The notes beneath the pieces are model-generated. The model was not told the DNA's origin, did no database searches, and saw nothing but the letters and a program-made list of their open reading frames with translations. The position numbers and the translations under genes are program-made. Shown in pieces: positions 4,493 to 61,656 of a stretch of DNA of 64,000 bases. Position 1 is the stretch's first letter; every line of letters begins with the position of its first letter. The DNA is from a virus. The stretch is from the IMG/VR virus record IMGVR_UViG_3300028805_000116. The stretch is one strand, 5' to 3'.

Positions 4493-5440
4493 ATGTCGCT
4501 ATTCTCAGATTTTACTCAAGGAGCTATAATTCAAAATCCTAAAGCAACCTATAGTTATAAGAAGGCTTTAGAGATAAAGAAAGAAACTGAACCTGTAAAA
4601 ACCTGGAAAGAAATAAGAAATGAAATGAAAGAGAAACTTACCCCAGAAGAATATAAGAAACGACTATATAAAGAAACCTACCAAAGAAAAAAAGAAGATA
4701 TAGCTAAAAAATATCAGGAAAAGAAAGCCGAGGAAGAAGCTTATATTGAGGAAATATATAAAGAGGTATACGATATATTACCTGAGCCTCAGGATTATGA
4801 TGATATCTTTACACAAAAATATAGATGTGATGATATCGTAAAAGATAGTTACATTTTTTCTTGGTGGAGTTCTAAGTTGGCCCGTATGAATTGGAATTAT
4901 ACACCTAAACAAAAAACTCCATTTAGAATAAGTAAAAGGTATGGAATTGATTTCCCGATAAAAGCTTTAATGTGAATACAAGATAAGGCTTACAATTATT
5001 TAAAACCTCATTTAGAGGAGATAAGGAATTGTAAATATTACTTAAGTAAAAAGCAATATATTTATTCACCTATATATTACATTGATGAGCCATTAAGAAC
5101 GATAGCAGATAATTGACCAGTTAATACTGCTCGCATAATAAATGTAGCAGATTGAATGATTAGGTGAAAATTTATAGCATCTGAATTGTATCTATGAAGG
5201 AATAATTTTATCTTTTGAGATGTGCTGGTTACAAATACCTGAAATACATTTAGGATAGCCTTAGAAAATAACCTGCCTTGGCTAACTAAAGATACTGTAG
5301 AGAAAATACATTCCCTAAGAATGGACTGGTGGAAAAATAAATGAGAAAAAGCTCCACCAATATACATAGTGAATGATGCTTATTTAATCCAGATTCATCC
5401 AAATGAACGAGAAACTTTATATTATATTGTACCAACATAA
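4493..5440 (+). CDS. Hypothetical Lys/Glu-rich protein, 315 aa
   Basis: Track ORF 4493-4975 continues through 8 in-frame TGA to TAA at 5438-5440. The stop overlaps the next start (taATG). Confidence 0.55.
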
Positions 5441-6138
5441 TGCCTAAATATATACCATTAAAAAAATGAGAGAAATTCTGAAAGCTTATTGCTTTATGAG
5501 AATGCGAAAAGAGATTAATATGAAAACAATGAGCTTCTGCTCGATATGAGAAATGTAAATGTACTTGTAAAAAGTGAAAAGAATTACGAGTCGCAAGAAC
5601 ATATTTAAATACTGGCCATACTGTAAGTTGTTGATGTGCGAGGTGAATTCCAAAATTAAAACATTGAGACACGTGAAGTAAATTATATAAAATCTATATG
5701 ACCGCTAAATCTAGGTGTAATAACCCAACTTGCTATAAATATAAGCGATATTGATGAAGGTGAATAAAATTTTTACGAGATAGTTATGAAGATTTTAAGA
5801 GAGATATGTGAGAATGATATTTAGAGCACATAAAAAAATATTGAAAAGAAAATACCCAAATAGATAGAATAGATAATAATTGAAATTACTGTAAAGATAA
5901 TTGTAGACGAGTGACTTGTAAAGAAAATTCAAGGAATAGAAGGAGTAACCATTTAGTTGATTTTCGTGGAGAAAGAATTTCGCTAATAGAGGCTTACGAA
6001 AAAGCTTCTCCTAAAATATCTTTCCCAGTCTTTTTATCTAGAATCTATAATAAGTGATTAGATAAAAACGTAGAATTAGCTTTATATTGAACAAATAAAG
6101 AAATAAGAGACTTTTTATCAGTTAATAGTGAAAAGTAA
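5440..6138 (+). CDS. Hypothetical protein, 232 aa. Position just upstream of terL suggests a possible small terminase subunit.
   Basis: Frame open from ATG 5440 to TAA 6136-6138 when TGA is sense. Translationally coupled to flanking genes. Confidence 0.4.
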
Positions 6139-6139
6139 G

Positions 6140-8293
6140 ATGGCATATGGGTTTTTATATAAAGACTTTGATGCAGACAGGGGGCTATTTTATAATGGAC
6201 AGCCACAGAACTTGAAATATGTCCTAGACCCTAAAGAAGCAGAACAATGGTATGAAAAACACAGAGAATTAATGGTGTCTGTGAATATTAAACGTCCACC
6301 AGATTTAGAAATCCCTGTTCAGATACCATTAGGTACAGGTAAACTCCTTAAACAAGATATAGATGAAAAGTTTTTATCCTTTATCACAAAGGGAGCTGTA
6401 TCAACCCGTATGGAGTTCATCTTATCAAGATTTATGGATAACTATCACCTTGGTACAGATTGAACCTTTTACAGGAGAGAGAAGGAAGATGTATCAGCTT
6501 TAGATAGTACCAGAAATGTCCTGGCACTGTGTATGATGAAAGATATTATCCTATGAATATTTAGGGTTACTCCTTTAAAAATCCCAGCCTGAAAGAATAA
6601 AAAGAACCTTTGAAAGATGGAATATATTGAATGGGATATTGGTGAAGACTTTTCTATTGACTACGAGGTTCAATGAACTAAGTTTACCACAAACCTATTC
6701 TGAGTATATAAGCCTAAATTATTTGAAGCTATGCTTGCAGATACCTGAAGGACATTTAACGGATTCTGTTTACAGCGTTGGCAGATGATGGTTTGGCTCT
6801 TATCAGGTTGAGTTACCTATGTAATTTGACCAAGGTGATGAGGTAAATCATTGTATATTAACGGAGATAGTGCGGGGTATTTACTTAAAGAGATAACAGA
6901 TAGTAATGAACGTATTCAAGAATTTTCAGTTCTCTATATGGGATTATCGCAAAAGCAGAACGCACCATATATGGTTTACTCTCAACAAATGCTTAATAAT
7001 CTTATTGATTTGCCGAGTTTTTGTAACAAGTTACCTGATAGTACAGGTTTATACATCCTCGACGGAGATAAGCAGAGAAAACTTGAATATGTTACAACTA
7101 ATCAGAATGACCCTACTAGGTCAAGACGTACAAGAAAATTCGTTTGAGATGAAGCAGACTATCTTGACTGGGACTATGTAGGTACAGCTATGGCCACAGC
7201 AGATTCATTAGTTACATTAATCTCTACTATCGGTCCTGATACACAAGCTTGAAACTTCTATAAAGGTTGGCTTAATGCTTATAAAAACCAAAGAGATTAT
7301 GAACCTATAGATGTACTTATTCACGATATATGGATTAAATACTGAATGCACCTATGTAAAAGTAGAGCTGATTATATAAAGAAAATTAAGAATTGAGATT
7401 TTGAAAAAATGAGAGCCGAGTTTATTCAGCGTCGCCCAGAGGTAGCCTTACATTTTACTATGGATGATGTTGAGTTTCTTACAGAGGAACAGAGAACAGC
7501 TCAGGTAATTAGAGTTCTAAACGCTAGATGATATGACTATATGCTTGCCGAATACTATGGAGAATATTCCACAGACCAAACTGTATTCAATATTGAGTGA
7601 GTGCAGCTAGCTTGTCCTAGCGATTGTGACTATTGGGTAGTTGGTTATGATGAAGCCGATACCTTCGACAATCCTTGATTATGTATCCTTTGATGTAAAG
7701 ATTGAAAGTATTTCATTAAGGAAACATATAACTTAGCAAAGGAGAGTAATGAAAGATTTGCTAAGATGAAGAGTATTATAACCGATTACAAAAATAAATG
7801 AAAGCCAGTTTACCTTGTGCTTGACGCTTCTAGGTGATGGGCCGCAGCAAGGGAATTATGAATGTTATGAATGCCTTGTGATATGCTTATCAAATGGACA
7901 GGTAATGTTACTTATCAACCTTGAGCTAGGCATAATGTAGGTAAACAACGGTGTATAGAAATGATTAGAAGCAGCTTCTTTGATACCAACCTTATTCATA
8001 TTGACCCAGCTTGTTATGGAGAATGAGGATTAGTTGAGGAGTTGTGACACTTTAAAAAATATAAATCTTCAGCTAGAGGTGAGAAGAAAATTCACGATGA
8101 CCAGGTTTCAGGAATGATGCTTGTGCTTTATTTCGCCTGGTTCCACGACCAGCTAGCAACTAAAGATGTGAATAAACTTTGAAATCAAAAGACTAATGCA
8201 CAAATAGCTGAATGACTTTGGGCTGAGAGATACCAGAAGCCTAAAGAGACAACTTGAGATTTTCTCTCAAATTTAAAGAATAATTTATTCTAA
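6140..8293 (+). CDS. terL: Terminase large subunit, ~717 aa. Walker A VIGPRGGGKS with three TGA-encoded glycines. Walker B KFVGDEADYLDWDY. C-terminal nuclease-like region HDDQVSGMMLVLYFAW.
   Basis: Single frame 6140-8293 joins track ORFs 6128-6463 and 6851-7147. Only TGA interrupts it. Terminates at TAA 8291-8293. Confidence 0.8.
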
Positions 8294-11743: not shown

Positions 11744-14700
11744 ATGGCAGTACAAGATTGTGATGATTTATCAAATATTATTGCTATATGAATATTGTCT
11801 TGAGATGATGATTTAGCTAAAGAGATAGTTAGGCTATCCACACAAAAGAGAGATTCGTTAGTTCGTGCTGGTAAACTTAAATGAGAAGATGCTGTGGAAG
11901 AAGCTACTTGACGAAGTGCTCACGAACTTGAATTAAAAGCCAATTCTGCTGATATAGAGCTCAGAGCTATTGTTCAAGCCAAAATCTTAACTTGAGAAAT
12001 TTGAAATGCGGAAGCGTATGTTGCTTTAGCAGAACAGATAACAAAGTCAGGATGAAGTATGTCTCAACAAATTAGTCTTTTAAATAAATTAAGAAGTGCT
12101 AAGGTTACAGATTTACAGGATATTGCTAAACTACGGTGATGAGCTTATAAAAATTATCCAGCTAAAGCTAAAAAAGAAATGGAAGAAGCTATAGCATCTA
12201 CTATTTCGGCTAACTATAGTATTAGAAAATATTCTGACTTTATGAGTTGAGAAGTTTCTGATTTAAAGACACAACTTAAAAATAAGAAGATAACTCAAGA
12301 ACAATATGAAGAGCAGATGAAATGACTCCATAAGAAGGTTATGGATAGAATAAACGCTTGAGAAAATCCAAAAGATTTTGTCCCTATTGATAAAGAATGG
12401 GATACTATAAAAAGAATTTACTCTACAGAGAATGTAGATTCTGATGCTATTACTGAAGTATTAGAATCCAGATGAAAAGCCTGGGTTCAATATGTAGCAG
12501 CTAGAGAATTATTAGCTGACTGAATGGTTGACGATGAATTACTTAAGGCTTTCGAGTCTTTGTTTGAAATGGATAATTTAGTAGGAGAATTAACTATTGA
12601 TGATATTGCTAAATTCTGAAAATGAGACTTAGATAAATTATTAGCCTTAGCCTTTACAAATACAGAACAATTATATAAAGATTGAATGCTAAGAGAGGCT
12701 TATAGAGCTAAACTTGTTGAGGTAACTTCTTGAATGAAAGTCTCTAAAGAGAATATAGCTAAAGCTACATCTATTATGAATACGATAGGTTTTGCTGAAC
12801 AATGAGCTTCCTTTGCTGATATAGCTACAGCTGACGCCGCAGCGCGTGCGGCTAGAAAGAGATGATTTAAGGTAAAAGATTGAAAAACTTTCTTGAATTC
12901 CTTAAAGTCATTCTTGAGAAAAGAAGAGGATAAAATGTTTGACTGACCTATTGTTATCGATTGAATAGAGATGACGGCTAAGGATATTATCCAAATTATA
13001 TACGATATAACTTGAGATGAAAATATCCTTAAGTTAATTAGAATAGGGTTTTATTCAGACGAAACTATATTATCTATTGCTACATCTAAATTGTTTAATG
13101 ATTCAGATGATGCTGCAAAGAAAATATTAAAATTATTTTCTAAGGCTTGAGATTGAAACACAATTGCCAATACTAGGAATATAGCTTTAAAAGCTATCAC
13201 TTGAGAAGAGATTAGAGAATGAGCAAAAATTGGATTCTTTAATTTTAGAAAAAATCTCTATTTTAAAGATGAATTAGATAGTGCTAAAGCTGAATTCTAT
13301 GATAAGTTAGCAGATAGAAATAAGATGAAGGTAGATTCATCTGATATTGAAGATATAACTCTAGATACTGATGATGCGGACAAAATAGCAGACAAACTAA
13401 GAAAATTTAAATGAGGGTATATTATTGTAAACGATGCTAGATATAAGACTAATAAGGCATTTAATGACGCTCTTAATAAGGTTAATAGTGAAATCAAGAA
13501 TGAAGAGGATAAGATAACTTGTATCTTTCCTAGATGATGAATGTCCTCTAGTTTTGTTATGGAATGAAAACAATTATACTTTAAAACTACAAACGCTAAA
13601 ATTTTCGATAATGTAGCTTGAACTATATCTATTCAATCTATGTGAAAATCTAGGCCGACAAGAGAAATTATTGCTAAAGCTTTTGAGGCTAAGACAGGTA
13701 AAAATGGAGATAAACTTAGATACCAGGCTAGTTATACTAAATGAGTATCTGATAGTCAATGAAGAAAACTTTCAGACCAGCAATACGAATATTTTAAAAA
13801 TTCTGTTGTGAGAGATGAGAATTGAAATTTAACCCCTGTATATCATTGAACTGTGGATAGATTCAATATCCCAGATATGTGAAAATCTAAGTTTGCTGCA
13901 CATTGACCTTGAATGTATTTTTCCACAAGTAGAGATGCTGCAGAAACATATTCTAGATTAAAAGATAATCGCTGGAACCCATTTAAGAAGCGTAGAATAA
14001 TAGAGGCATATCTTGATATTAGAAATCCTATAACTGAAGATACTGTTTGATTCGATGATGCTTGGTTAAATGAATTAGAAGCTCTATGATATATTATCGA
14101 TAGAGATATGGTTAAGAGACAGAAATGAAAGGTAAAAGATATATACAATGTTCTTTATATGTTTCAAGATAAAAAGAAGCAATGACAATTTGTTACAGAC
14201 TTTAAAAGGGTTACTTGATTTGATGGTATCAGAATAGATATGCGTTGAGATGAAAAGTATTGGATAGTATTTGAAGCTAATCAGGTAAAGTATGTAGATA
14301 ATAAATTACCTACAAGTAAGCCTAATATGAAGTATCAGGGAAGGGACAGTAATTTATTGTTTATAGAACAACCTACAGAAAAAGAAATAGATGATTACTT
14401 ATCTGAAAACAACGTGTCAGATATATTATTAAAGAGATTTTGAGAAGCTAAAAGTTTAGACGAGTGATTATTTATTACAAGGGATTGAAAAATAATTTCT
14501 TGAAGATATAGACCAGATATATATCCAGTTAATAAAATTTGGGATGATGCGTGATACAAATTAAATTTAGAACATCCTACTGCTATAGAAACTGCCGTAT
14601 TCGATTTGTGGAAAAATGTGGGGAAGGCTGACACGTATGAAACTGCATCTAAAATGCTTTTGGATAGAGCGATGGAAAAAGAATGATTAATCCGCATTCG

Positions 14701-17700
14701 CCCAAGAATTTTGTCTGATTGAAATGAGCTTATTATTACTATAGCTAGTAAAGAATTAAGCCCACAACAAAAGGCTGTTCTTTCGGAATATATTTCAAAA
14801 TTTAAAGAAGACTTTAGGGAATGAACTAGATGACAGATTACAGTAGAGGCCCAACGGACAGACAATAAGGGGATGTACCCTGGCGAGACTATTAATGTAG
14901 GCTTAAATACCAACATTAACGATATTGATAAAGTATTAAAAGAAAAAATAAATTCTCAAATTAGTGAGCATATTCCTGATGAACAAGTTTTAAAAAATAG
15001 AGCTAAACAAAAGGAGACTTATTGAGAAGGAATATCATTAATAAGGCTATGAGAAAAACAACCATCATTTATGAGACGTTTAGATGATTATGTTTCTCAG
15101 CAAGATGTAGCAGCAACTGATGCTATGAAGGCGCAGATGTTTACAAAAGATAGAACTGTTCAAGAAATAGCTGATGCTTATTGAGTATCTGTTGAGTTTG
15201 TAAAATGAACTAATATGATTGCTTGAGTTGAGGCTTATTGAGCGTATTGAGATGGTATTATCTATTTCACAGATATGGTTAAGGAGAGTACAGCTCCACA
15301 CGAATTGTTCCACGCCATATTTGATATGCACGTAGGTAAAGAACAACACGATAAATTACTCAAACAATGAAGTAAACTCTTCAATGTTAGTGAAGACGAA
15401 ATGGAGGAAATAATGGCAGATAGTTTTGCTCATTGGTTTAATACTTGAGAGTTTATTTACTGAGACGAACTTATAAAGGCTGCTAAAAAGAAGAGACCTA
15501 ATAAAGCAGAAAAATCATTTATAAATAAGGTATTAGAAGTCTTTAAAGACTTAAAGAAATGGTTATGATTAATGGATGACCATAGGGCTGAAGTTAAACA
15601 GATGTTCGACGATATGGTAAATATGAAATATCTACCAGACGCTTGAAAAGCTGTTGAAGCTACGGAAGCTATGATTAAATATAATGATGACTTGGAGAAG
15701 GCTGCTATAAAATACTACTGACAATTACTTTGAGATTACCAAGAAGACTTATCTCCAGAATATATTGAAAGGATTCGCACGAAACTTTCAGAAAAAACTT
15801 GAATTGATTTTAAATCTTTTGACCAAATCCAAGATAAGGCTCTACTATGGCAAAAGGTTGATGAAGCTTTTGTTGTAGATAAATTAGTTTCAGGTAGATA
15901 TGATAAAGAGATTGTAGATGTAGACAATTTAATTAATTGAATAGAGAAACTTACAGATAAAGAGTTAGAGGATGTTATATTCAAAGATTTATGAGTTTTA
16001 AGTAAATGATGAAAGGTTGTAGGTAGAGATACTATTGATGCAATAAGAAACGCATATATAGATTATAAAACTGCCTGAAATGCCGTAGATAGTTTAATAG
16101 CTAAAGGTAAACTTACAGCTTATATACATTGAACTGAGGCGCAGAATGTATCTATGGAAGATATAAGGGCAATATTCCAGAATTGAACATTCGCTCAAAA
16201 ATATAAAGAAATGTTCTTCCCTAATCAAAAACTTACAGCAAAAGAAGAACAAGAGATAATAAAACAAATCAATGATAATATATTTGATACTTTATCAATT
16301 CAGTTTGCTGAAAATTTAGTATCAGCTTGATATGAATTGCCTTTGATAAATATCAAAACATTTATGTATGACTATTTAAATTGAAAGTTAGACTTAAATA
16401 ACAAGTTTGTTGAAGCATTTCTTTATAAAAATAATATTCCATTTTCATCCGATTGATTAAGATGAATTGTAGATAGTTTAATGCCATCAGAATTAAACTT
16501 CAACTATAATTTCTCAAATTATTCATATTGACTTGGGCAAAGGCCTCACGTCTGAGAAAAGGCTGTGTTCAAGGAAGTTGATAATAGGTTTGTTATGGAC
16601 AGTTATTCAGCTTTAGCCTGAATAGAATTAGCTGCTAAGTGATGAATTCCTGAAAATGAGGAAAGGAAAATATTAGAAGAAATCCTTACTAAATATGTAA
16701 ACGAGGTAATTAAATGAGTCAAAGATTGAACGTTAGATTTCAAATGAGCTCAAGAATTAAAACAAGAAGTATGATATGCTTTAGATATGTTTGAACAGGA
16801 TATATTATTGCCTAAATATGGTATATTCTTATCTCCTCAAGAAAAGCAATGACTTATAGGAATGAAATATGACTTGCCTATTTGAGTAAAATGACAAAAC
16901 ATAACTAATGTGACTAAGCAGCTAAACGACATAAAACAGAAGCTCTTAAATAAATATGATAATACGCTATGAAGTATAGTAGAAAATAATGATATTAATG
17001 AAGCAATTCTTAAATGAATTAAAAGTGAAGATGAAAGAATACAAAAGAAAATAGATGCTAGAAGAGATATGTTAGCTGAGAGGTGATGAGTTATCAGAGA
17101 GGTTAATTGACAATATTTGGTATATAATGCTAAACAGGCATTAGAATATGCTTTAGAAGATTTGCCTCCAAGTATTAATTGATTAGAATGACTTAGAGTG
17201 CTATGAAAAGAATGAATTGATAAATTATCTAATCAACAGGCATATGCTTTACTTAGATATATAGAAGCTGCTAAAAGCCTAGATGCCACAGCTTGATATG
17301 CTATAGAGCTTATGTATAAACAAAACCCTATGCTACTTCAATATAATTTCTTTGAAGCATATAGAGTATGAGACCAATGAATTCCTAAAGCATTAGAATG
17401 AAATTCATTAAATTTTGACAAACTATTATCTAGATTAGAAAATACAGCTAAGCTTGATGAAACATCTAAGAAGAATATATTTGAATGAGTTATTAATAAG
17501 TTTAGAAAACAATGATATGTTACTAATGATGACTTAGATGATATTATTGATAAGTGAATAAAAGAAGCATACGCAACATATAAACAGTCGCATATGTCTC
17601 CTAAAGAGATAAAGAAAGCCGTAAATAAAATGAAGAATATTTACAAGAAAGCTTTCGCTCCTTACACTTATTTAAGAGATATTCCTTCTTGAGGAACTGT

Positions 17701-20700
17701 AGATTGAGTAGAATTCAGGAATATAAAATCTAAAGTAAGGGAGGCTATGAAACAGCAATACAATCAAGCTATGGAAGATTTAAAGTCGGTATGAATTACA
17801 AATACGGATTGAATTCAAGATACTATATATCTCACCCTTCCAACTTGACAGAAGATGTCTCTTAGAGATGCTTCTACATTAGATGTTGATAGTTGGAAAA
17901 AATGAATATTTAATGATGAAAGTGTTTATGTAGCTTGAGCTGATGAATTATGAGCTGCTTGAAAGAAGACTGTAGAAGAGCAAAAGGAGTTCAGGAAAAC
18001 TATGGTTAACGAATATGACTCGACATTACAGACTATACTGAACCAATCTCAGTTTATTAGCGAATCAGAAAGAGCATTACAAGGTTCTATTATGAGTGAC
18101 GTAAGGGCTATGTTAAGACAATGAAATCTTACAAACTTAATAGTAGATGCTTTAGATGCCGTAAGTTGACTTAATGAAGAGGCTGCTAGATGAATAAAGG
18201 ATTATCTTATCTGATGGAAGTGAAACGTTTCATTCTGAAAATGGAAGTCTTCTCAGATTATAGAGAGAAATGAATTAGTAAAGAAAGCATACGCACAATA
18301 TTATGCTATGGATTTGTCTAAACTTAATAAGGTAACTCCTTGAACAAAAGCAGAAGACTTAGCTTTAAGATTAGCAAGATACTTTAAAAATTTGGAAAGA
18401 TTATTAGGTAGTGCAGATTGAGTAACTTGATGTACTACAAGTAATCAATTAAATAGAGCGTTCTTCCATATAGGTGAAGTTGTTATGAATGTGGATAGTG
18501 TAAAGTGAATTTTCTGATTATTATCTGCGGTAGAACAAAACCAGATATTAAAGTTGTTTAAGTTTGCTAAGTGAGATTTAAGAAAACAAGCTGAGGTATT
18601 TATTCGTAAAGGTAAAGGTAATTTTACTGAGAGCCTTTGATGATATAGAGACTACGCAGAAGATATTAGTTGAATTACTAGAGATGAGTTCAATGAGATT
18701 TTCTGAACATCATTTAACGAGGACGATTTTAAGAAAATACTTCAATGACTTACAGGTTTCTCATTGGTATGATGAGTTACTAAACCTGTTATGAAAGCAT
18801 TGAATTTCTTGAGCTGAACTAATTTCATATTTAGAGCTGCAATGTCTTACCCTTGACAGCTACTTACAATTCCTTTACAAAGCACAGCATATTTCTTAAA
18901 ACAGATATGATTTGAAAGAGCTTTGGATATTGATAGCTTATCTGATATTGACGAAGTTAGAGTTCATTATTGAATTTTGGATTGAGCATATAACGAAATT
19001 AATTGGTTTAATAAAAAATATAGGGTTAGTCCAGATGATGTTAGAGTAGATAGTTACTATAATAGGTACTGAATCCCTGATGTAGAATGAATTTATAAAA
19101 CTACATCCATAGAGAGCAGTGATGATTACATAAATATGTATGCTAAAATTAATAATCAAACTGCATCAAGTATCAGTTCTACAAATAAATGGATAAGACA
19201 ACTAGACCCATATAAAGATAATGCAAATAACATTATAGACTGATTATTCGCTAGAAACTTTAAAAACATAGCGTTCCAAAAAGCTATAAGACAGAATGAC
19301 TTTATGCAATTTTCTTCAGCAAAAGAGTTCTTAGCCTTTATGGAAGACCCTACGGTATGAGGTTCTGTAAAGCAAAAACTATTAGATAGAGTTGCTGCTT
19401 ATTCAGGTAGAAACTTTAGAAATATCCTTTGATTAGGATTCTGATGAATTGATAGAGCTGTATGATGAAGTGGATTTGGAAACATAATGTACTGACTTAT
19501 GCAGATGTTTAACTTTAGATGAAGTTGGTGACAGAATATATTTAAACAAGCTTGAGCTGCTATTAAGACTTGACTAAAGATAGTGAAAGCAAATCCTTGG
19601 TTAAGTAGAGAATGAAGAGATGCCGTTGGTAGATATATAGCTACACAGCCAGAATTTATGAATTTTGTCTGAGCTTTATTTAATGACTTAAAACGAAGTT
19701 GGAGGTTACAAAGATTCCAAGATAATTGAAGATGGCCAGATAACGAAGATATGTATGTGACTACAGAGTTCTGAGATGTATTTGACGCATATTCAGCTTT
19801 AGATTTTATAGATTACTTAACAGAATCTTTAAGTCTTACTTCACAATTATTCCAGTGAATACAATCATTCTGACCTGCTAGACCAATATTAGAATGAGTA
19901 GAAAGCGCATATAAATCATATATGGACCCTACAATTTATAAAGATACATTCTGAATTTGAGCTTTCTTTAATGCTTTATGAAAGAACTTCTGAAGACAAT
20001 GGAAACCACATAACTGGATTGCTAAAGCATTATGAGCCTTAACTACAGATTGACCTGAGGCATTCTGGACATATGTACAAAATGAATGGTATAAATTATC
20101 ATTTGGTTCTGTAAGGTATATGGTTAATGAAGATAGTAATTCTTATGGATATACTTTCGAAATGACTTGACAACAATGATGAATTCCGTCTATTATAATG
20201 TGAGAATGAAAACAAGGTTCTGATAAAAATTTCTCTTATGAAATAGATAATACAGAGACTTGGGAGACTATAAAACAATTATTTAGTAGCTGAAACTCTT
20301 GGGACGATAGACTTACATATGCCTGAAATCTTTGAAAAGCATTTGTTAACTGAAGTCAGTTCTTTAGTTTATGGAAGAATGCTTGAAAGGCTTGGAATAG
20401 GAATGCTCCAAGTTATTATACAGCAGATGATTTAGCAGATGTTTTACAAAATACTGAAGCTTGATTAGAGTTTTACCAGAAATGAATTGTAACTCCTAAA
20501 ACAAAAGAAGAAGCTGAGATATTCTTTGATACAATATTAGAAAATTCTAAGTTCCGTCCTTGAAGTAGTAATTTTACTAAATCATTAATCAATTATGAGG
20601 ATTATTGACATATGAATGGTAAAGAGAAATGAAATGAAGCTGATGCTGAAATGGAACTTTGGCTAGACCATATGAAACACGTAACTGATGACCATTGAGT

Positions 20701-21952
20701 TATAAGAAAAAATTGAAGCGAGGAGACGGTTGACCCATCTTGGAATAAATTAATTAATGCTGTTAGAAGTTGAGCTTACAATGGAACTTATACAACAAAC
20801 TTGATTTATAACTATGCTAAGACTTGGTTAGACAACCATTCGTCTGACCCTAACTATCAGCTTTATCTTAAACTCTTATGACAATGACAAGCTCATAAAT
20901 TAATTGAGTCTACACAAGACGATATTATAAAAGCTTGGAATGCTGGTAAGAAATGAGTTGATAATAAATGGACGGAGACTGAGTTCAAAAACGCCTGATT
21001 AAGGAGAGATATGTTATTATCTATGTGAAACACTCCTTTACCTTGAGATACTGAAACATTCTTTGATAAACTACAAGTTCTAGATGAGGATAATGCCACA
21101 GTTGCAGCATTACAAATCATTCAGAACCAAGCAAAAGAATGAGATAGAAAAATTATTGATAAGTTCTTTAATGTAAAAGAGAATGATGATTGAACAAAGT
21201 CTGTTACATTAAGAAGACAATATGAAAGTACATTAACTCAGATTTGAGCTGTTGCTAAAGCTATTGATGAATGAAATCTTGAGAGGGCAATATCTGAATC
21301 TTCTATTCTTACAAATATGTATAAGAACCAAGACCCATCAGGAGCTGTAACTGCTACATTGATTGATAGTGTTGTTAATAGAATATACGATACAGATAGT
21401 TTTTCTCCTGAGCAAAAGCAAGAAGCTATTATAGCATTATTCCATCATAATAAAGAATTCATACAAAAGAATCCAGAAAAGCTAAGAGAATTATTATGAG
21501 ATGAATATGATACTTATGCTAATTATATGAATCAGATGCTTTATCAATGGGATTGAGCATTATTGTCTACATTAGAAAGTATGCAGACTAGCTGAAAAGG
21601 TTCATCTTGAACTGCTAAGAAAACTAAAGCTACTTCTAGTGAATTGAAGAAATTAGCCGCCTCTCTAGGTAATGAATGATGAGCTAGAGGAACTTGAACT
21701 GTATGAAGCACAAAATCTTGGGTACCTGTTATTATTAAGTGAGCAGACTTAGTAAAGGAGTTATGAGTAAAATGATATACTCCTAATAAGGTATCATTGT
21801 CTATAAATGCTTATAAGCCTAAGATAGATTTAAGTATAGCTAAAGATATTAACAGAAAAGTTAAATGACCTAAGACACAACAGATATCAAACAAAAAACA
21901 ATTAAGTAAACTTGAAGATAAGGTTACAAAAGCTACTGAAGCAGAAAGTTAG
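11744..21952 (+). CDS. Giant protein, ~3402 aa, polyvalent-protein-like. HExxH zincin-like motif PHELFHAIFDMH at about 15296-15330. H-Y-E-class ADP-ribosyltransferase-like motif VYHGT...GPGMYFSTS near 13850-13950.
   Basis: Single frame from ATG 11744 to TAG 21950-21952. Same frame mod 3 as track ORF 21317-21499 which lies inside it. No TAA/TAG over 10.2 kb, >150 in-frame TGA. Confidence 0.6.
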
Positions 21953-42075: not shown

Positions 42076-42384
42076 ATGACAAATATTTTCATTTGGCTTA
42101 TTGCTATTTCTGTAGTAATCACTAGCATAGTTTCTTTTGCTAAGCCAGCTTATAAGAAATTCGCAGGAAAATTTGCAGTAAGTATTAACATTCTTTTAAG
42201 TTTTATCCTTTGAGAAGTAGCTTCTTTCTCAGTAGCTCCTCTATTAGGATTGGAATTCAATTCAGGACTTCTTATTCTTTTAGGGTTAGCTCTTTGAACT
42301 GGGTCTAACTTATGGTATGACCTATGGGAAATTGTTAAATGATTAGGAGTTAAACTTAAGAAGGGGATTGAAGAAGTGAAATAA
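42076..42384 (+). CDS. Membrane protein, 102 aa, two predicted TM helices. Holin/lysis-associated candidate.
   Basis: ATG 42076 to TAA 42382-42384. Confidence 0.4.
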
Positions 42385-46383: not shown

Positions 46384-46420
46384 AAGGTGGATAATTGTTC
46401 CACCTTTAATTTATTTCATA
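46384..46420 (+). terminator. Rho-independent terminator (aaggtgga-taattgt-tccacctt + T-run). Part of a ~50-bp element repeated at 48733-48785.
   Basis: 8-bp perfect stem followed by taatttatttc. Confidence 0.5.
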
Positions 46421-46431
46421 ATTTATACATT

Positions 46432-47358
46432 ATGGAAAACTTAACAGAAGAACAAATAAAAGCTTTTGAATGAGCTCTTACATTACCAGAAGATATGGCT
46501 GAAGCCACAGACTTCGAAGCTACAGAAGCAATTAAAGTTGATTATGACGTTAAGCTCCCAGAGTTCTTTTCTCTATGAAAATGGATTTACAAGACTTCTA
46601 ATCAATGAACTCTTTGAGCTTGTACTTCATTATGAACTACGCATTGAGTACAAATCTTACAGGTAAAAAAGAATTGAGTAGAGCCAACAGATAGGAATAT
46701 AATTACTCCACAATGGAAGGACCTATGGAGTAAGATGGGTCACTCAACTACTAAATATGATGGTTGAGACTATGTAGAGAAAGCCGTATCAACTGCGTTA
46801 AAGGAATGAATTCTTATTGAGGAGAATTGACAATTAGCTAAATTCGATGCTTATGCTACTTGAGAATGGGATAGAAGCGATAAGGCTATCGACCTAATGA
46901 AGAGATATCTTTATCAAGGTTGCCCTATTGTGTGGTGTGTAAGGTGAGATAAAACAACTTGGAGCGAGATGACTAAATGAGAAATCAAAACTGTTCCTAC
47001 AACTCCTACGGGATGACATTGTATAGCACTTGTCGGTTGGGATAATTGAGGATTCTGGTTTGTTAATAGCTGGAGTGCTAACGATGGTAAGAAACTTAAA
47101 TCTAGGTTCTACATTTCTTTTAAGACTATGAAAGATTTTGGATATAGATTTAACTATAGATATTGGGTTCTCTATATGAAAGAAGACGAAGCTAAAAGTG
47201 CAGAATATCTAAAGAGAAAGAATAGGGCTTTAGTAGTATTGCAAGCCCTTAAAAAATTATATCCTGAAGAGAACTCAGATGTTAAGATAGGGATTGAAAC
47301 TTTAAGCAGAGCTCTACGTAAAAGTTATCCAGAGCTTAATACAGATTTACCGTTGTAA
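46432..47358 (+). CDS. Papain-like (C1-type) cysteine peptidase, 308 aa. Catalytic-type motifs NQGTLGAC, GGHCIALVGW, NSWS. Candidate endolysin/peptidase.
   Basis: ATG 46432. Same frame as track ORF 47128-47358. TAA 47356-47358. Q/C/H/N-S-W order matches the papain fold. Confidence 0.5.
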
Positions 47359-47381
47359 AATTTAATTTTAAATAGAAAATA

Positions 47382-47888
47382 ATGTCTTGAGAATTCAGTG
47401 CAGCTGGTGCCGTCGCTAGTGTAGCAGGGGGGATAACGCTTGCTTCTGTACTAGAATATCTACAATTAAGTGGAGAAGTTTATGCTATTTTTGCAGGGCT
47501 TCTCTTTTTAGATTTTGTCTTTTGAATAGCTGATGCTTATTTTGAAAATAAACAAAGTGTAACTTCAACAAATGCTTGGAGAGGAATATTTAAAAAATTC
47601 TCCAAATTAATGCTCCCCTTGATAGTAATATTTGTTTTAAAATGAGTTGGCGCTGAGGATATATCTATGTTAGTGACAAGTGTAATGAGTATATTAATCA
47701 TAACAGAGTGATACTCTATTATCTGACATATATATTCAATTAATACTTGAAGCCACTTGTCAGAGATAGATGCCTTTTCTTTGCTTATAGAATTTATCGC
47801 TAACTTATTTAAGCAGAAGCTACCTAGAAAAGAAGAAAATTTAGAAACTATTAAAGAAGATGAGCAAACCACACAGGATAACCATTAA
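47382..47888 (+). CDS. Holin, 168 aa (phage_holin_4-like: ...YAIFAGLLFLDFVFGIADAYFENK...)
   Basis: ATG 47382 to TAA 47886-47888. Membrane topology and sequence resemble the LL-H/phi-29-type holin family. Confidence 0.55.
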
Positions 47889-48243
47889 TGGGCAGGAATA
47901 TCATCTTAACAAATGTATCCCAGCTGATGCTAAATCAGAACACCATATAGTTTGACGCTGTAATAGAGTACAATATAATACAAATGAAGCTATTAATAAA
48001 GTGTTAATCGCAGATAGAAAGCACCAAGCTCTCAATAGGTTCTATGGGCAATCACAAAGTCCACACGAGCAATTAAGAGATATGGTAAAATTATGGGAAC
48101 CTGTGTTAAGTGATGTAGTGAGAGAGGAGTTATATGCTATTCTCTCCTTACCTAGATGAGCTTTCTATCAGCCAGGAATGGTAAAGAAAAAATATGAAGA
48201 TAAGGAATTATTCTCTGACGAAAAGAGTCATTTTTATAAATAA
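47860..48243 (+). CDS. Hypothetical protein, 127 aa, overlapping the holin 3' end out of frame
   Basis: ATG 47860 to TAA 48241-48243. Positions indexed carefully. Confidence 0.4.
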
Positions 48244-48273: not shown

Positions 48274-48498
48274 ATGACAACAATTAAAGATGTTGAACCA
48301 GTAGAAGTTTTATGAACAGATTGAAAAATTTACAAAAGAATGCCTTGTGAAGTTTACACAAGAGTTATGGGTTATATCAGACCAGTAAGTTGATACAACC
48401 CTTGAAAGAAAAGCGAATTTTATGGAAAGAAATTTTTCGAAGAAAATAAAGTTTCAAACTCAGATTTTATCCGTAAATATTGAAAACAAGATGCCTAG
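48274..48498 (+). CDS. Stand-alone NrdD-like glycyl-radical module, 74 aa (...CEVYTRVMGYIRPVSGYNPGKKSEF...)
   Basis: ATG 48274 to TAG 48496-48498. Matches the class III RNR C-terminal motif RVxGYL...(F/W)NxGKxxE. Confidence 0.5.
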
Positions 48499-48716
48499 TA
48501 AGGTTTTAATGATTTGTGGTGAGACTTGTATAAAATGTAAATTTCTAAAGCCACATCTTGAAAAGTTCTGTTTAGATAATAATATCCCTTTTGAAGAAAA
48601 AGATGTGAATATGGCTACGCCTGAAGAAATTGAATGAGCTACTTCATTGCCAGTAGTATGGTTCGACGACAAACAAATAGATTATGACGAAGCTCTATCT
48701 ATTATTTCTAAATAGA
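48491..48716 (+). CDS. NrdH/glutaredoxin-like redoxin, 74 aa. CxxC = CIKC. Also LPVV motif.
   Basis: ATG 48491 overlaps the previous stop (ATGCCTAG). Track ORF 48422-48637 extends through TGA to TAG 48714-48716. Confidence 0.5.
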
Positions 48717-48820: not shown

Positions 48821-50239
48821 ATGAGCGATTGTAAATGTAAACATCCTTGTAATCCTTGCAATGATAATTGTCCAGATGATGAAGAAATTACTGAGGTAGA
48901 GCTATTAGATGCCGATGAATGCTCTGGTCCTTGCGGTGGATGTTGCTCTAGTTGATGTAAGGATAATTGCTGAATAAATATTCAATCTACAAATGAATGT
49001 CTTACTGTAGATACATCAGAATGTTGAGTGGTTAAACTTACAGTAGAATGTCCTAAACCTACATATGTAAAGGCTTGAGATAACATTACTGTAGAAGAAG
49101 AAACTCCTCCAAGCGACTGTTATTCAAATTGATGAGATTGTTGAATAAAGTGATGATGGAAGATAAGCTCTACAGATGAAAATGTTAAAGCTTGTGACAA
49201 TGATAGCACACCCTGAACATTAATAGATAAACTAGAAGAAGGACATTGAATAAATATTGACCCTATAGGGTGTGATTGAAGCAATAGTAAATTAAGAATT
49301 TCATTTGATGATAGCGTTATACCTCCTTGTCCAACTCCGCCTAGGATTATAATAAATGACCAGTCTGAGTTAATTGATGCTAGAGTTAGTTGAACAGACT
49401 GACATACTATAACTATTACAGATAAAGATAAGTGAGTATTCTATGCTAAGCTAGTATTAGCTGATAATCATATATGGACTGAAGCCACTTGAAAAGAATG
49501 AGTTTGGGAACAGTATCTATGAGAAAAGGCTGCAGTTAATTGGAAACCTGTTAGACAATCTTGATGAGCTTTAGATGTGAGTGCTTCTCTACGTAAGTGA
49601 TTAGCATTCTTTAACTGAACTGACGCTGCTCCAGGATTATGAATAATAGAAATTACAAAGAAATGATTATACCAGGTATGATTTTCTTGAAGTGCTGAAT
49701 TCTCTTATTGAGTACACGCATTTAGAGTACAGCTATATAAAATTCCAAAAGCAGATAGAAGTAAGACTAATACCATAATTGAGAGTAGATACTCTTGACC
49801 ACTAGGTTATGAACCTTGGCAGCCTGTTATAGGCAATGCAGGTAATATTAAATTTGTTTCTAATGTTACTTGATGATGATGAGAAAGTAGACCTGACGTA
49901 GAAAAATGAGAATATCATATGGATTATCCATTAATATGAGAAAAAACCGAAGTAGAATGACAGCATTGAATCTGATATTCTGCTTCGTTATGAGCCGTGA
50001 TGGATAGAGTAACTGTAACAGGTAATACTATAGTAGAATTGGACGAATGAGATAGGTTGCGTATTTGATTAAAAATGTCTACATCAATAATGCACTCTTG
50101 AGATATGATGGCTAAAATTCCTGCAAGTTTCTTAACCTGACATTTTGCTTTGCTATGAGCTGACGCAGGACAAAGTGATAATGGATGAGAAGCTTGATTC
50201 TCTTATTACGCTAACCTTATTCATCCTTTACTTTCTTAA
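48821..50239 (+). CDS. Cys-rich N-terminal domain + jelly-roll-like C-terminal protein, ~472 aa. Tail fibre/receptor-binding or lysis accessory candidate.
   Basis: ATG 48821 to TAA 50237-50239. Many in-frame TGA. Confidence 0.4.
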
Positions 50240-56990: not shown

Positions 56991-59361
56991 AACGTCTATC
57001 TTTTCTTTGGTGATGATTTTAATAGTTCAGTGATTATATACTACAGTATAACCACCTACACTTTTATATGGATTCATTTCTTTTATTTTCTTAATGTAAA
57101 AGTTTTTGTTTTGCTATAGATATAAAGTCTGCATATCTTACCCTATCATAAATTCTCTCTCCTATTAGTCTGAATCTAATCGTGTAGGGATAACTTTTCC
57201 CCATATGGCAAAGGAGCCATCGGCCCTTCAGACCTAAAAGGAATTCAATTTCACTAGAGAAATCTGCATTGACTTCATCTGTTCGTTCTAATCATTCAGC
57301 CTTAGCTTGCTGTTTAAGTTCAGCAATAGCTTCAGATAAAGTTAAGTTCTTACCTTTAGTTTTCATCTACATAACTTTTTTTATAAATTCTCTTGACTTA
57401 GAGTTATAAATGATTAATATAGACTCCGCTGTCAATACAAAGCTAATTGACATTTTCTATTTTTCTACTCAATTAGCGTGTCCGTTGTATCGGCAGATTC
57501 TAAATCATTTTTTCTTGTGAATCTTTAATGAGATTCAAACACTTCTAAACTTTGGGGTAAAGGATACAGAAGTGATAATGTGGTGAGCGTTTGTTTCAAC
57601 TAACAACCATTCACCATTTCAATCAGCAAATAGATAACTCCAGGATTTACTCTCACCTGGGGTTACTATCATTTGCTCTACAAGTTCGTTACCTATTCTA
57701 TCACGAACCCATTTTAAAGGATAATAACTATTCATATTTTAACATATAGGAATAAAACAATCTTTGGACTTTAAATAAAAGCCCCAAGGCAGAGTAAACC
57801 TATTAGTATTATGTTCAACCCATAGATATCATTCTATAAGTCAGACTACTTCTACATAATAGCTTACTCCTCCTTGAGGCATTTTTATTATATCCCCTTT
57901 TTTTAAGAGAATATGTGGGATTACTCTCATTTTTTGTTTTTGTTTTTGCTGGCTAAATAATTACAACACATTTAAAATAAAGTTATAGTTTTAATTTGCA
58001 AGTCTTTTTTAAAGAGGTATAGTCATCCACTTGAACTAATCTAGCTCAAGTTTTTTTATAGCTGAGTTATAGTTCTTCACCCAGTGAGAACATTCACTAG
58101 CACAATATTTTCCCCTGAGCCAATCGTTTCAAGTGACTCTAGTCTCCCGACCATTCCTAACGTACATCGCAACCCATTCTTTTATGGATTCTTCAACGCT
58201 TGAGAATTTCTTTTTCTTTCAGTTATACATCCATCAAAATCAATTATTGCTTGGATACATAGCCTGTTTAAACATACCCGACTCAGCATTGCTGACTCAA
58301 ATTACATTTTTAATACATTGCTTATAGTTATCAGTCTGCGTAGCACACTCGTGAACTATAGCATAACTAATAGATTCATTCCCAACTAATGAATTTACCT
58401 TTTCGACAAGCTTCTGTTCTGTCATTTCTCGGGTGTAGATGATAGTTTCTTCTACAGTTGTAGCTCAAGTTAAGACATCACCTGTAAGTGAAGTAGCTTG
58501 TTCAATAATTAAATCCTCACCGTGTCATAGGTTAAATCAAAATATAAATACTAAGATTGTAACCATAACTATAATAAGGATTTTTAGTCGCTTAGTTGTC
58601 ATACTTTGGTTTAAGATTTAAATCTTCCCAACCTATATTTCTATAGAGAAGGTGCAGACTATACCTCTTGCCCTCTTTAGAATAGTTCCAGACCGTAGTC
58701 CGAGCTGTGCGAACACCTATTCTTGGCTGAGGCTTCCACCTCTCCAAACATTATTTCTTTTGCACATATCTTGATAACGGCATAACGCTTCAAATAAACA
58801 TTTTCTACAGCTTTCAATTTCAATTCATTTCTCGCAAACTCTTTTCTTCTCTTCTACTTTTTCTTTGCTGTAGAAGTGTTCCTTTATAATTTCTTCTCAT
58901 CTCGACATATAATCTATTGTAAAGAAATAAAATCCCCATATATAGATTATATATTTAAGATAAATTTTAATAACCTATTCCTTATCAAAAGGTACTTCTA
59001 ATTGGTTTTCATCTTTCTTTCTATCTTCACCTTTATAATGAGCAATTAAAGCTCTAGCTAATTCCATAGCCCTTTCTTCATTTCAAGGTATCCCAGCTAT
59101 CTCATTTAATTCTTGAGCGGCTTTTTCTAATTCGTACTTATTCATTAATCTGTATATTGCATAATGTTAAAAAGTCTATTAGGTAACTCTTCATCGTGTT
59201 TATGTTGCCTAAGTTTTTTAATTATCTTCTTATATTGATATGGGCGGAGACTTCCATAATAGGAAGACTTCTTATTATTTTTCCATTTTCAATATTTATC
59301 TTTTCGCACGTGACGACAATATGAGCAATGACAGCAACCAAAGCCCATACTGATAAAATTA

Positions 59362-60551: not shown

Positions 60552-60876
60552 CCTTCAATATTTTTCTTTCAAGTCTACCGTCCCCCAATTTATTTCTGCT
60601 AGCTCCTTCATTGTGTTATATCGATAATCGTACCATTTAGCTTTCTTATCTACACTAGGAGTGAATGGTTTAAATCGTCTCATTATCCTTTTACTAACTC
60701 AATAAAATCATCTAACTCTTTATCAATCATTCATCTTATGATATTCTTCAATTCCTCATATTGAGTGATTTCTGGATTATCAAAAGATGGTTCTCATAGG
60801 TGGTCTAGATTAGCATAGGAATCAACCACATCCATTATTTCATTAGCTAATTTTTCTGCTATACTTATCATTTTTA

Positions 60877-61656
60877 TTGCATCATCATTATAAATGAACT
60901 ATCTTCTCAGGCCATAGTTACAGGTAATTTACCATCCCATCTTTCAATCCATTTTAATTTTACATATTCAGCACCTCATTGGTTTTGAATAGCTTTAGCT
61001 TGGATTTCAATAGCCTTAGCTTGCGCCTCAGCTGCGACAACCTTTTGGTCAGCTTCATACTTTACTTTCTCTAGCTTATTCTTTTCGGCAAGAGCATTCT
61101 GTTCAGCGGTAACCTTAGCCTCAATTGCATCGTTGAATGATTTACTAAAGTTAAAGTTTACAATATTGAATAACTGAATTTGGACTCCGTATGGTTCAAG
61201 CCTTTTGTTCAATGTTTCTTCAATGTTTTTAGATACATCACTTCTTTCAGTAATCAATTGCTCTGCTGAATATTTAGCGACTACTGCTTTAAATACTTCT
61301 TGAATAGCAGGAGTAATAATCTTTTCAGCTACTTTTTCTTCTTTACCTACATTCTTGTATAGGTTTACTACTTCGCTTTCCTTGTACTTGTAGTTCACTA
61401 CTATTGTGGCACCTACACTCTGCAAGTCTTTTGAACTAGCATCAGCTGTAGCATCTAATTTTTGCGTCTGTACATTATATTTTACAGACTTAGTAATGAA
61501 TGGAGTTTTAAAATGTAATCCATCCGTGTAAACAGTACTGTTAACTTTTCCTAGTGTAACAGTAAATCAGTTGTATCCAGGTTCAACTACAAACCAAGAG
61601 TTAAAACCACAGATTACTAACAAGAGTATGACAATACTCCAAACAAATTTTTTCAT
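60877..61656 (-). CDS. SPFH/band-7 (prohibitin/stomatin-like) membrane protein, ~259 aa. N-terminal TM helix MKKFVWSIVILLLVICGF. SPFH core includes ...ITPAIQEVFKAVVAKYSAEQLITERSDV...AEAQAKAIEIQAKA...
   Basis: Track ORF 60976-61425 extended upstream to ATG 61654-61656 and downstream through TGA to TAA 60874-60876. No TAA/TAG in frame. Confidence 0.5.

Follow-up and report, generated by a model that had tools for sequence, protein, structure and literature searches.

A papain-like cysteine peptidase and a holin gene in a most likely lysis module of a phage that reads TGA as glycine

The window analyzed here is a stretch of 64,000 nucleotides of viral DNA, IMG/VR record IMGVR_UViG_3300028805_000116. 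Three genes, P1, P2 and P3, occupy positions 46432-48243 of the window, and this segment is most likely a lysis module at the distal end of the late operon in a tailed phage with a genome of roughly 63 kb. The genes, with the lengths of their products in amino acids (aa), are as follows.

46432..47358, + strand: P1, 308 aa, with 15 TGA = Gly codons; candidate endolysin, a papain-superfamily (C1-like) cysteine peptidase
47382..47888, + strand: P2, 168 aa; a Phage_holin_4_1 / TcdE-type holin
47860..48243, + strand: P3, 127 aa; soluble, mildly basic and restricted to one phage lineage

The same three open reading frames (ORFs) had been described in a sequence-only reading of this DNA. Their coordinates and lengths are correct only if TGA is read through. 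With translation table 11, the longest + strand ORF within 46432-48243 is 76 aa. The 308-codon frame that starts at 46432 is interrupted by 15 in-frame stops, all of which (15/15) are TGA, and is otherwise a coherent protein. The chance of a 308-codon frame without TAA or TAG is about 6e-9 at the local base composition. This phage is also present in public data as a JGI contig of 63,192 bp and an ENA contig of 110,628 bp, and independent gene calls on both copies give identical P1 and P2. The ENA call for P3 is also identical, and the JGI copy has an 80-aa version with the same stop. P3 overlaps the 3' end of P2 by 29 nucleotides in a different frame, as the sequence-only reading had described. 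When TGA is read through, the total length of ORFs of at least 100 codons in the window rises from 15 kb to 77 kb. Reading the window with code 25, in which TGA is glycine, gives a tightly packed phage genome with a + strand block of packaging, structural and late genes (~4.5-50.2 kb) that is flanked on both sides by - strand blocks.

The identity of the amino acid encoded by TGA can be read from the peptidase genes themselves. An alignment of ten such genes has 38 columns that contain TGA. The partner codons in these columns are mainly GGA, GGT, GGG and GGC, and TGA and TGG are never found in one column. Code 4, in which TGA is tryptophan, is ruled out by this pairing with GGN and never with TGG. 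The database homologues of P1 have mostly been translated under code 4, and their TGA glycines are written as W. At the TGA positions of the window, W (the homologues' own TGA) alternates with G and small residues. The glycine columns that are invariant across the papain family (in the QG..G.C and GGH motifs) show the W artefact in all nearer relatives and G in the remote C1 proteins that use the standard code. The window's own P1 gene is present in public databases (P0001) with 15 W-for-Gly errors, some of them at active-site glycines.

In the large genes TGA is the main glycine codon, with 818 occurrences compared to 416 for GGN. All 32 genes of the + strand and 31 of the 34 genes of the - strand (63/66 overall) contain it in frame, with a density of 55 per 1000 codons in the + strand late genes compared to 25 per 1000 in the - strand genes. 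Across the whole window, genes stop at TAA (56) or TAG (10), and no tRNA genes were found in it. Code 25 is used genome-wide, on both strands. Recoding of only the late genes in a standard-code host is ruled out, because nearly all - strand genes contain in-frame TGA too and no suppressor tRNA is encoded in the window. Since code 25 is used throughout the genome, the phage should replicate in a host that uses this code natively. The host would belong to the Absconditabacteria (SR1) or the Gracilibacteria, and the sequence-only reading, which had supposed a host from the Candidate Phyla Radiation (CPR), fits the codon evidence. Code-25 phages of these two groups have already been described (Liu et al., mBio 2023, PMC10746230), and resemble the present phage in that in-frame TGA is dense and code 11 leaves them almost without annotation.

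The product of P1 contains the motifs Q58-G-T-L-G-A-C64, G195-H196-C-I-A-L-V-G-W203 and N212-S213-W214. Their Gln-Cys...His-Asn-Ser-Trp order is that of papain and the cathepsins (family C1A), and the spacings of 6 residues between Q58 and C64 and of 16 residues between H196 and N212 are equal to those of papain. Residues Q58, C64, H196, N212 and S213 are invariant or nearly so among 120 homologues, and the Gln, Cys, His and Asn of the catalytic set are also conserved in 88 remote relatives. A profile-profile comparison (hhalign) of the phage family with papain and 22 of its C1 relatives gave a probability of 99.8% and E = 8.6e-30 over 223 columns. This alignment covers the whole mature papain domain and places Q58, C64, H196, N212 and W214 opposite Q19, C25, H159, N175 and W177 of papain. 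It supersedes the comparison of the family with the single papain sequence, in which only the His-Asn block was aligned, with a probability of 4%. The sequence-only reading had made its recognition of papain-order motifs depend on their matching catalytic residues in profile alignments, and they do match.

Single-sequence searches with P1 were far less informative. Peptidase_C39_2 (PF13529) is the only Pfam model that P1 touches, at 20.6 bits compared to a cutoff of 24 and only over the C-terminal half of the model. Some members of the family score above this threshold (P0102 with 30.0 bits; several homologues have precomputed PF13529 assignments). There is no match to Peptidase_C1 (PF00112) even at E <= 1, nor to the CHAP and NlpC/P60 lysin domains at E <= 1. 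Neither of the latter is among the top fold matches, which are C1A enzymes instead. Thus, of the Pfam families that the sequence-only reading had named for a check (Peptidase_C1, C39 and CHAP), only C39_2 responded, below its threshold. Scans of P1 against PHROGs and NCBIfam gave nothing useful, and a tblastn search of 50,697 deposited phages gave no match. The family has 217 homologues of ~305-315 aa on phage-sized contigs, and 131 of 1.84 billion cluster representatives match its profile. Papain used as a query detects 41 of the 130 cluster representatives. Among the 88 full-length remote relatives, 50 are assigned to PF00112, 12 to Peptidase_C1_2 and 26 to Peptidase_C39_2. The P1 clade, out to about E = 1e-10, appears to be confined to genomes in which TGA is glycine.

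The closest solved structure by both sequence profile and fold is the C1A enzyme xylellain (PDB 3OIS), which the family profile finds with E = 0.003 and with both motifs aligned. The AlphaFold model used for the fold comparison is that of a 58%-identical database homologue with TGA-to-W artefacts, which probably lower its quality. Nevertheless, all 50 of the top 50 Foldseek matches of this model in the PDB are C1A enzymes, and its top viral matches are annotated C1 peptidases. The polypeptide consists of an acidic N-terminal segment (residues 1-41), a catalytic domain (~42-249) and a conserved helical C-terminal extension (250-308), the last of which is modeled with high confidence. P1 differs from the papain and cathepsin group in having no PF00112 match, no secretion signal and, in place of the I29 propeptide, the acidic segment. 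The N-terminal 40 residues have a net charge of -10. The protein has no hydrophobic segment (the maximum 19-residue hydropathy is 0.72), and no signal peptide was found by a simple hydropathy test, which is not a dedicated signal-peptide predictor. Because it has only four cysteines (C64, C164, C169 and C197), P1 cannot form the three disulfides of papain. Judged from its sequence, P1 is a predicted peptidase, a divergent papain-superfamily protein that is closest to C1 and has the full Gln-Cys-His-Asn catalytic set.

P2 is identified as a Phage_holin_4_1 holin by its sequence. It scores 36.4 bits against PF05105, for which the cutoff is 22.2, and is assigned to the holin family phrog_13191 in PHROGs, so the phage_holin_4-type holin of the sequence-only reading is confirmed at the level of family models. 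The hydropathy profile has 3-4 hydrophobic segments and a charged C-terminal tail. P2 shares multiple transmembrane segments and a charged tail with the TcdE-type holins of toxin secretion and phage lysis (Phage_holin_4_1 / TIGR01593). It differs from them in that its score against TIGR01593 (E = 5.6e-8, 32.8 bits) is below the cutoff of 40.2 and its tail is acidic, not basic. A second small membrane protein is encoded upstream in the window:

42076..42384, + strand: 102 aa with 3 hydrophobic segments; weakly holin-like (phrog_1299 holin, E = 0.005)

Homologues of this protein are present in the related loci L002, L003, L007 and L013, and in some relatives they are found near the peptidase instead of P2.

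P1 is positioned at the far end of the late block and adjoins the holin gene. In the related loci the peptidase is always at the end of the late/tail-fibre block, and in most of them a holin or another small membrane protein is encoded within ~2.5 kb of it, although none is evident in L004-L006. The peptidase is followed by the holin in the window and in L015. In L017 the order is holin, P3-like ORF and peptidase, and in L013 one gene is inserted between peptidase and holin. L002, L003 and L007 have the homologue of the 42076-42384 membrane protein in the holin's place, and in L016 the peptidase is followed by an 88-aa protein with a single transmembrane segment. When all sizeable proteins of the window were scanned with Pfam and PHROGs, no lysozyme, amidase, CHAP, NlpC/P60 or transglycosylase was detected. 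Because P1 lies next to a holin, because this linkage is conserved and because no other wall hydrolase was detected, the most likely role of P1 is that of the endolysin, or at least of a wall or envelope peptidase associated with lysis; the argument is one of position, linkage, exclusion and precedent. The lysis neighborhood proposed in the sequence-only reading agrees with these observations.

The same observations bear on the idea that P1 is unrelated to lysis and is a host-takeover, anti-defence or morphogenetic protease that happens to lie beside a holin in a compact genome. The function of P1 is indeed deduced from position only, and the block also holds a fragment of a ribonucleotide reductase and a thioredoxin-like gene, and in relatives a metallophosphoesterase, RNase H or TnpB. 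However, the linkage to a holin-type gene persists through several rearrangements, and maturation proteases are found with the capsid and portal genes, a long way from P1. In other phages, peptidoglycan-directed modules are fused to C1 domains or encoded beside them, and no alternative lysin is seen in the window. A role outside lysis is therefore improbable, in our estimate the least probable of the explanations considered for this gene.

Two groups of ORFs were considered as rival lysins and rejected. An ORF of 315-385 aa recurs upstream of the peptidase in the relatives and might have been a conventional lysin, but it turned out to be a helix-turn-helix (HTH) metallophosphoesterase, an RNase H or a TnpB. 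The gene for the HTH and calcineurin-like metallophosphoesterase protein is upstream of the peptidase in L001, L002, L003, L007 and L008, and is not found at this position in the window. The end-of-late block of L009 contains an IS605-type TnpB (5616-6668), and that of L004-L006 an RNase H fusion; the window has no counterpart of either at this position. The second candidate is a - strand ORF of the window, 58036-58602, which encodes a 188-aa protein that is anchored in the membrane by its N terminus and whose segment NAESGMFKQAMYPSNNGFGWMY resembles a transglycosylase by eye. Its reading as a membrane-anchored transglycosylase, and thus a rival endolysin, found no support in Pfam, PHROGs, NCBIfam or PDB sequences.

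Peptidases of the papain clan are no strangers to viral lysis. CHAP, NlpC/P60 and the pseudomurein endoisopeptidases PeiP and PeiW of archaeal viruses (MEROPS C71) are all papain-clan viral Cys-His peptidases that cut wall peptides. The sequence-only reading had called a C1-type endolysin atypical. This is fair for the characterized endolysins, but the lysin catalytic domains catalogued so far include Peptidase_C39_2, listed only for phages with Gram-positive hosts (PMC8223927), and C1 domains are present in deposited phage lysis cassettes. Two of these, to which a bridging relative of P1 led, belong to Alicyclobacillus phage MMB025 and Thermoanaerobacterium phage THSA-485A. The novelty of a C1-type domain in such a cassette is accordingly modest.

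The 'endolysin' of MMB025 (XXN61434.1, PV686781.1) resembles P1 in having an N-terminal Peptidase_C1 domain, which is also at the Peptidase_C39_2 threshold, in its lysis position after the tail fibres and in belonging to a phage of a monoderm host. It is, however, a 753-aa protein in the standard code, in which Peptidase_C1 is combined with an Rv2525c-type glycosidase-like domain and PG_binding_1. P1, at 308 aa, stands alone, lacks a binding module and has a helical C-terminal extension of its own, and the two proteins have no direct sequence match. The 'peptidase C1A papain' of THSA-485A (Tsac_2838) is closer to P1 in architecture: it is a stand-alone C1 protein of ~277 aa in a lysis-type cassette and is followed by a small ORF. 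Here the difference is a lysozyme with GH25 and PG_binding_1 domains immediately upstream of the C1 gene, a partner that the window lacks.

Several points weigh against P1 as the endolysin. The C1 domain accompanies a glycosidase in both MMB025 and THSA-485A, and by analogy P1 might be an accessory enzyme and not the main lysin. A cryptic muralytic enzyme is possible, since many proteins of the window are unannotated, and P1 has no recognizable wall-binding domain. The characterized C1 enzymes are proteases, and to our knowledge xylellain and the cathepsins have no wall substrate. A literature search found no report of a characterized C1-type endolysin or of a C1-type peptidase that cleaves peptidoglycan. 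Of the two lobes expected of a papain fold, the beta-barrel lobe with His and Asn is confident in the homologue model, but the helical lobe with Cys has a predicted local distance difference test (pLDDT) score below 50, which makes the active-site geometry uncertain. Direct adjacency to the holin is not universal, the holin of L001 being ~2 kb upstream of the peptidase. Finally, the host is assigned from the genetic code alone, and no prophage copy or relative was found in 185,579 reference genomes.

The accessory role can be put more precisely: P1 would degrade an envelope protein layer (an S-layer or wall-anchored proteins) after the holin has acted, and an unrecognized enzyme encoded elsewhere in the genome would cut the peptidoglycan. 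C1 enzymes are proteases by default, and the pairing of C1 domains with a glycosidase in THSA-485A and MMB025, as well as the large number of unannotated proteins in the window, fit such a role. Furthermore, S-layer-homology domains are present in 10 of the 88 remote relatives of P1, although these are cellular proteins and not phage ones. In L016 a CW_7 wall-binding protein, which has no counterpart in the window, is encoded four genes downstream of the peptidase. On the other hand, Pfam and PHROGs searches of the window revealed no glycosidase or amidase candidate, and the transglycosylase-like ORF 58036-58602 is without family or PDB support. We consider the accessory role unlikely, though less so than a function unrelated to lysis. 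The CW_7 peptidoglycan-binding protein of L016 (7128-7685) has 185 aa, and the peptidase upstream of it is 64% identical to P1; the CW_7 protein might be a separately encoded wall-binding subunit.

On balance, the segment is probably a lysis module in which P1 is a holin-dependent enzyme that cuts the wall or envelope of a code-25 host. We infer from the context described above that P1 acts on the cell wall and needs the holin, and also which bonds it would cut. A wall-peptide substrate is plausible, because the wall of the characterized Absconditabacterium Vampirococcus is of the Gram-positive type and this organism has genes for peptidoglycan synthesis (PMC8080830). Lysis would follow the canonical holin-endolysin route. 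P1 would accumulate in the cytoplasm late in infection, and the P2 holin would open the membrane at a set time. P1 would then reach the wall and cut the stem peptides or cross-links of peptidoglycan, or an envelope protein layer, and the cell would burst. P3, a conserved soluble protein, would be translated from the holin transcript and have an accessory role. A bolder proposal is that the C1 papain-type clade of TGA = Gly genomes acts as the sole endolysin in phages of Absconditabacteria or Gracilibacteria, cuts a peptide target specific to the CPR envelope, and is held harmless by the acidic N-terminal segment, by the helical C-terminal hairpin or by P3 as an inhibitor or antiholin. Taken as a whole, this proposal is doubtful.

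P3 is a real gene, because it is conserved from its proposed start codon in 62 homologues of ~130 aa, the alignment of which begins at that codon. The protein is mildly basic and has no hydrophobic window (maximum hydropathy 0.54). No match to P3 was found in Pfam, PHROGs, NCBIfam or PDB sequences. Its structural model is of moderate confidence, with a pLDDT of 71 and a predicted template modeling (pTM) score of 0.49, and a fold search with this model against the PDB gave no match. An EHHI...N...H..LN motif raised the possibility of an HNH nuclease, which was rejected because HNH is not among the weak Pfam matches of 58 members and there is no PDB sequence or fold match. The sequence-only reading had offered an antiholin or a spanin-like partner. 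A spanin-like P3 is contradicted by the lack of a hydrophobic segment; moreover, the likely hosts are monoderm (PMC8080830), and a spanin would therefore have no role. A membrane-type antiholin is likewise not indicated, as P3 has no transmembrane segment and its frame differs from that of the holin.

There is a small chance that P3 is a soluble regulator of lysis: it might bind the holin as a cytoplasmic antiholin, or be an inhibitor or chaperone of the papain-like peptidase that prevents its activity in the cytoplasm. Soluble antiholins such as T4 RIII exist, as do protease inhibitors encoded beside their enzymes, such as the staphostatins. P3 overlaps the 3' end of the holin gene, and a P3-like gene directly follows a holin-type gene in the window, L016 and L017, which have three different gene orders. 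However, this role has no support from family, fold or motif, and the overlap with the holin gene is not conserved in the relatives. A search with a hidden Markov model found P3-like genes in only 7 of 14 distinct related loci, always within the end-of-late block, whereas the peptidase is present in every locus. Furthermore, the most constant neighbor of P3 is not the holin but a downstream mini-ORF encoding the C terminus of NrdD (in the window, L013 and L015).

The features that surround the three genes are listed below.

46384..46406, + strand: terminator-like hairpin, AAGGTGGA-loop-TTCCACCTT with a T-rich tail, between the preceding gene and P1
48274..48498, + strand: NrdD-C mini-ORF, 74 aa; matches positions 532-560 of 562 of PF13597 with E = 5.6e-6, and NrdD models of NCBIfam
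48491..48715, + strand: thioredoxin / NrdH-like glutaredoxin ORF following the NrdD-C mini-ORF; phrog_22, and a weak match to TIGR02194
50251..50265, + strand: terminator-like hairpin where the + strand block, after its last gene, gives way to the - strand block

The hairpin at 46384..46406 may be the upstream edge of the transcription unit of the lysis genes. Three terminator-like hairpins were found in the region compared to 1.9 expected, a number that is not above chance. The match of the NrdD-C mini-ORF is confined to the last ~30 residues of NrdD, the anaerobic ribonucleotide reductase, and takes in the glycyl-radical motif (RVMGY...NPGKKSEF); no full NrdD is encoded in the window. Homologues of the mini-ORF, 69-71% identical to it, immediately precede the peptidase gene in L001 and L007; in L013 and L015 they come after P3. 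The mini-ORF could encode a 'spare-part' glycyl-radical protein. The start of the next ORF at 48491 is that of the database gene calls; an ATG-first call gives 48422. The last gene of the + strand block (48821-50239) encodes a 472-aa protein with a very cysteine-rich N terminus (CKCKHPCNPCNDNCP...) and no family match.

A 265-aa protein of the window (5341-6138, + strand) has paralogues in L013 (8052-8729 and 11315-11992) and L015 (7582-8178), where they lie between or beside the lysis genes, in L013 also between peptidase and holin. They look like homing endonucleases by eye and have no Pfam match. The + strand gene at 11744-21952 encodes a protein of 3402 aa with an ART-PolyVal ADP-ribosyltransferase domain (69 bits) and, by eye, a zincin-like HELFH motif; it is probably a giant polyvalent protein that is packaged in the virion. 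The - strand (early) block contains a gene for a membrane-anchored SPFH/Band_7 protein (60874-61656, 112 bits). The first 1400 positions of the window have a G+C content of 7-12%, compared to 30-35% in the rest. In view of this and of the different lengths of the ENA and JGI copies (110,628 and 63,192 bp), they may be foreign AT-rich DNA joined by misassembly, or an unusual phage end. No terminal repeat, which would be a sign of a complete genome, was found in the window.

Two consequences concern annotation. Gene calling with the standard code hides the entire lysis cassette of this phage, and in databases, code 4 translations replace catalytic-site glycines by tryptophan, so that family assignment and structure prediction both suffer. 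With respect to biology, we found no report on lysis by phages of code-25 CPR bacteria, and the description of code-25 phages (PMC10746230) does not mention lysins or holins. Both CPR-phage lysis and the chemistry of C1-type lysins are uncharacterized, which makes the finding one of moderate interest. P1 most likely belongs to a known kind of enzyme, the cysteine-peptidase lysins, as a member of a clade that appears to be specific to code-25 phages. If P1 is indeed the endolysin, the papain C1 family proper would join the catalytic domains of lysins, and P1 would be an enzyme for opening the cells of Absconditabacteria or Gracilibacteria, which are uncultivated or hard to grow.

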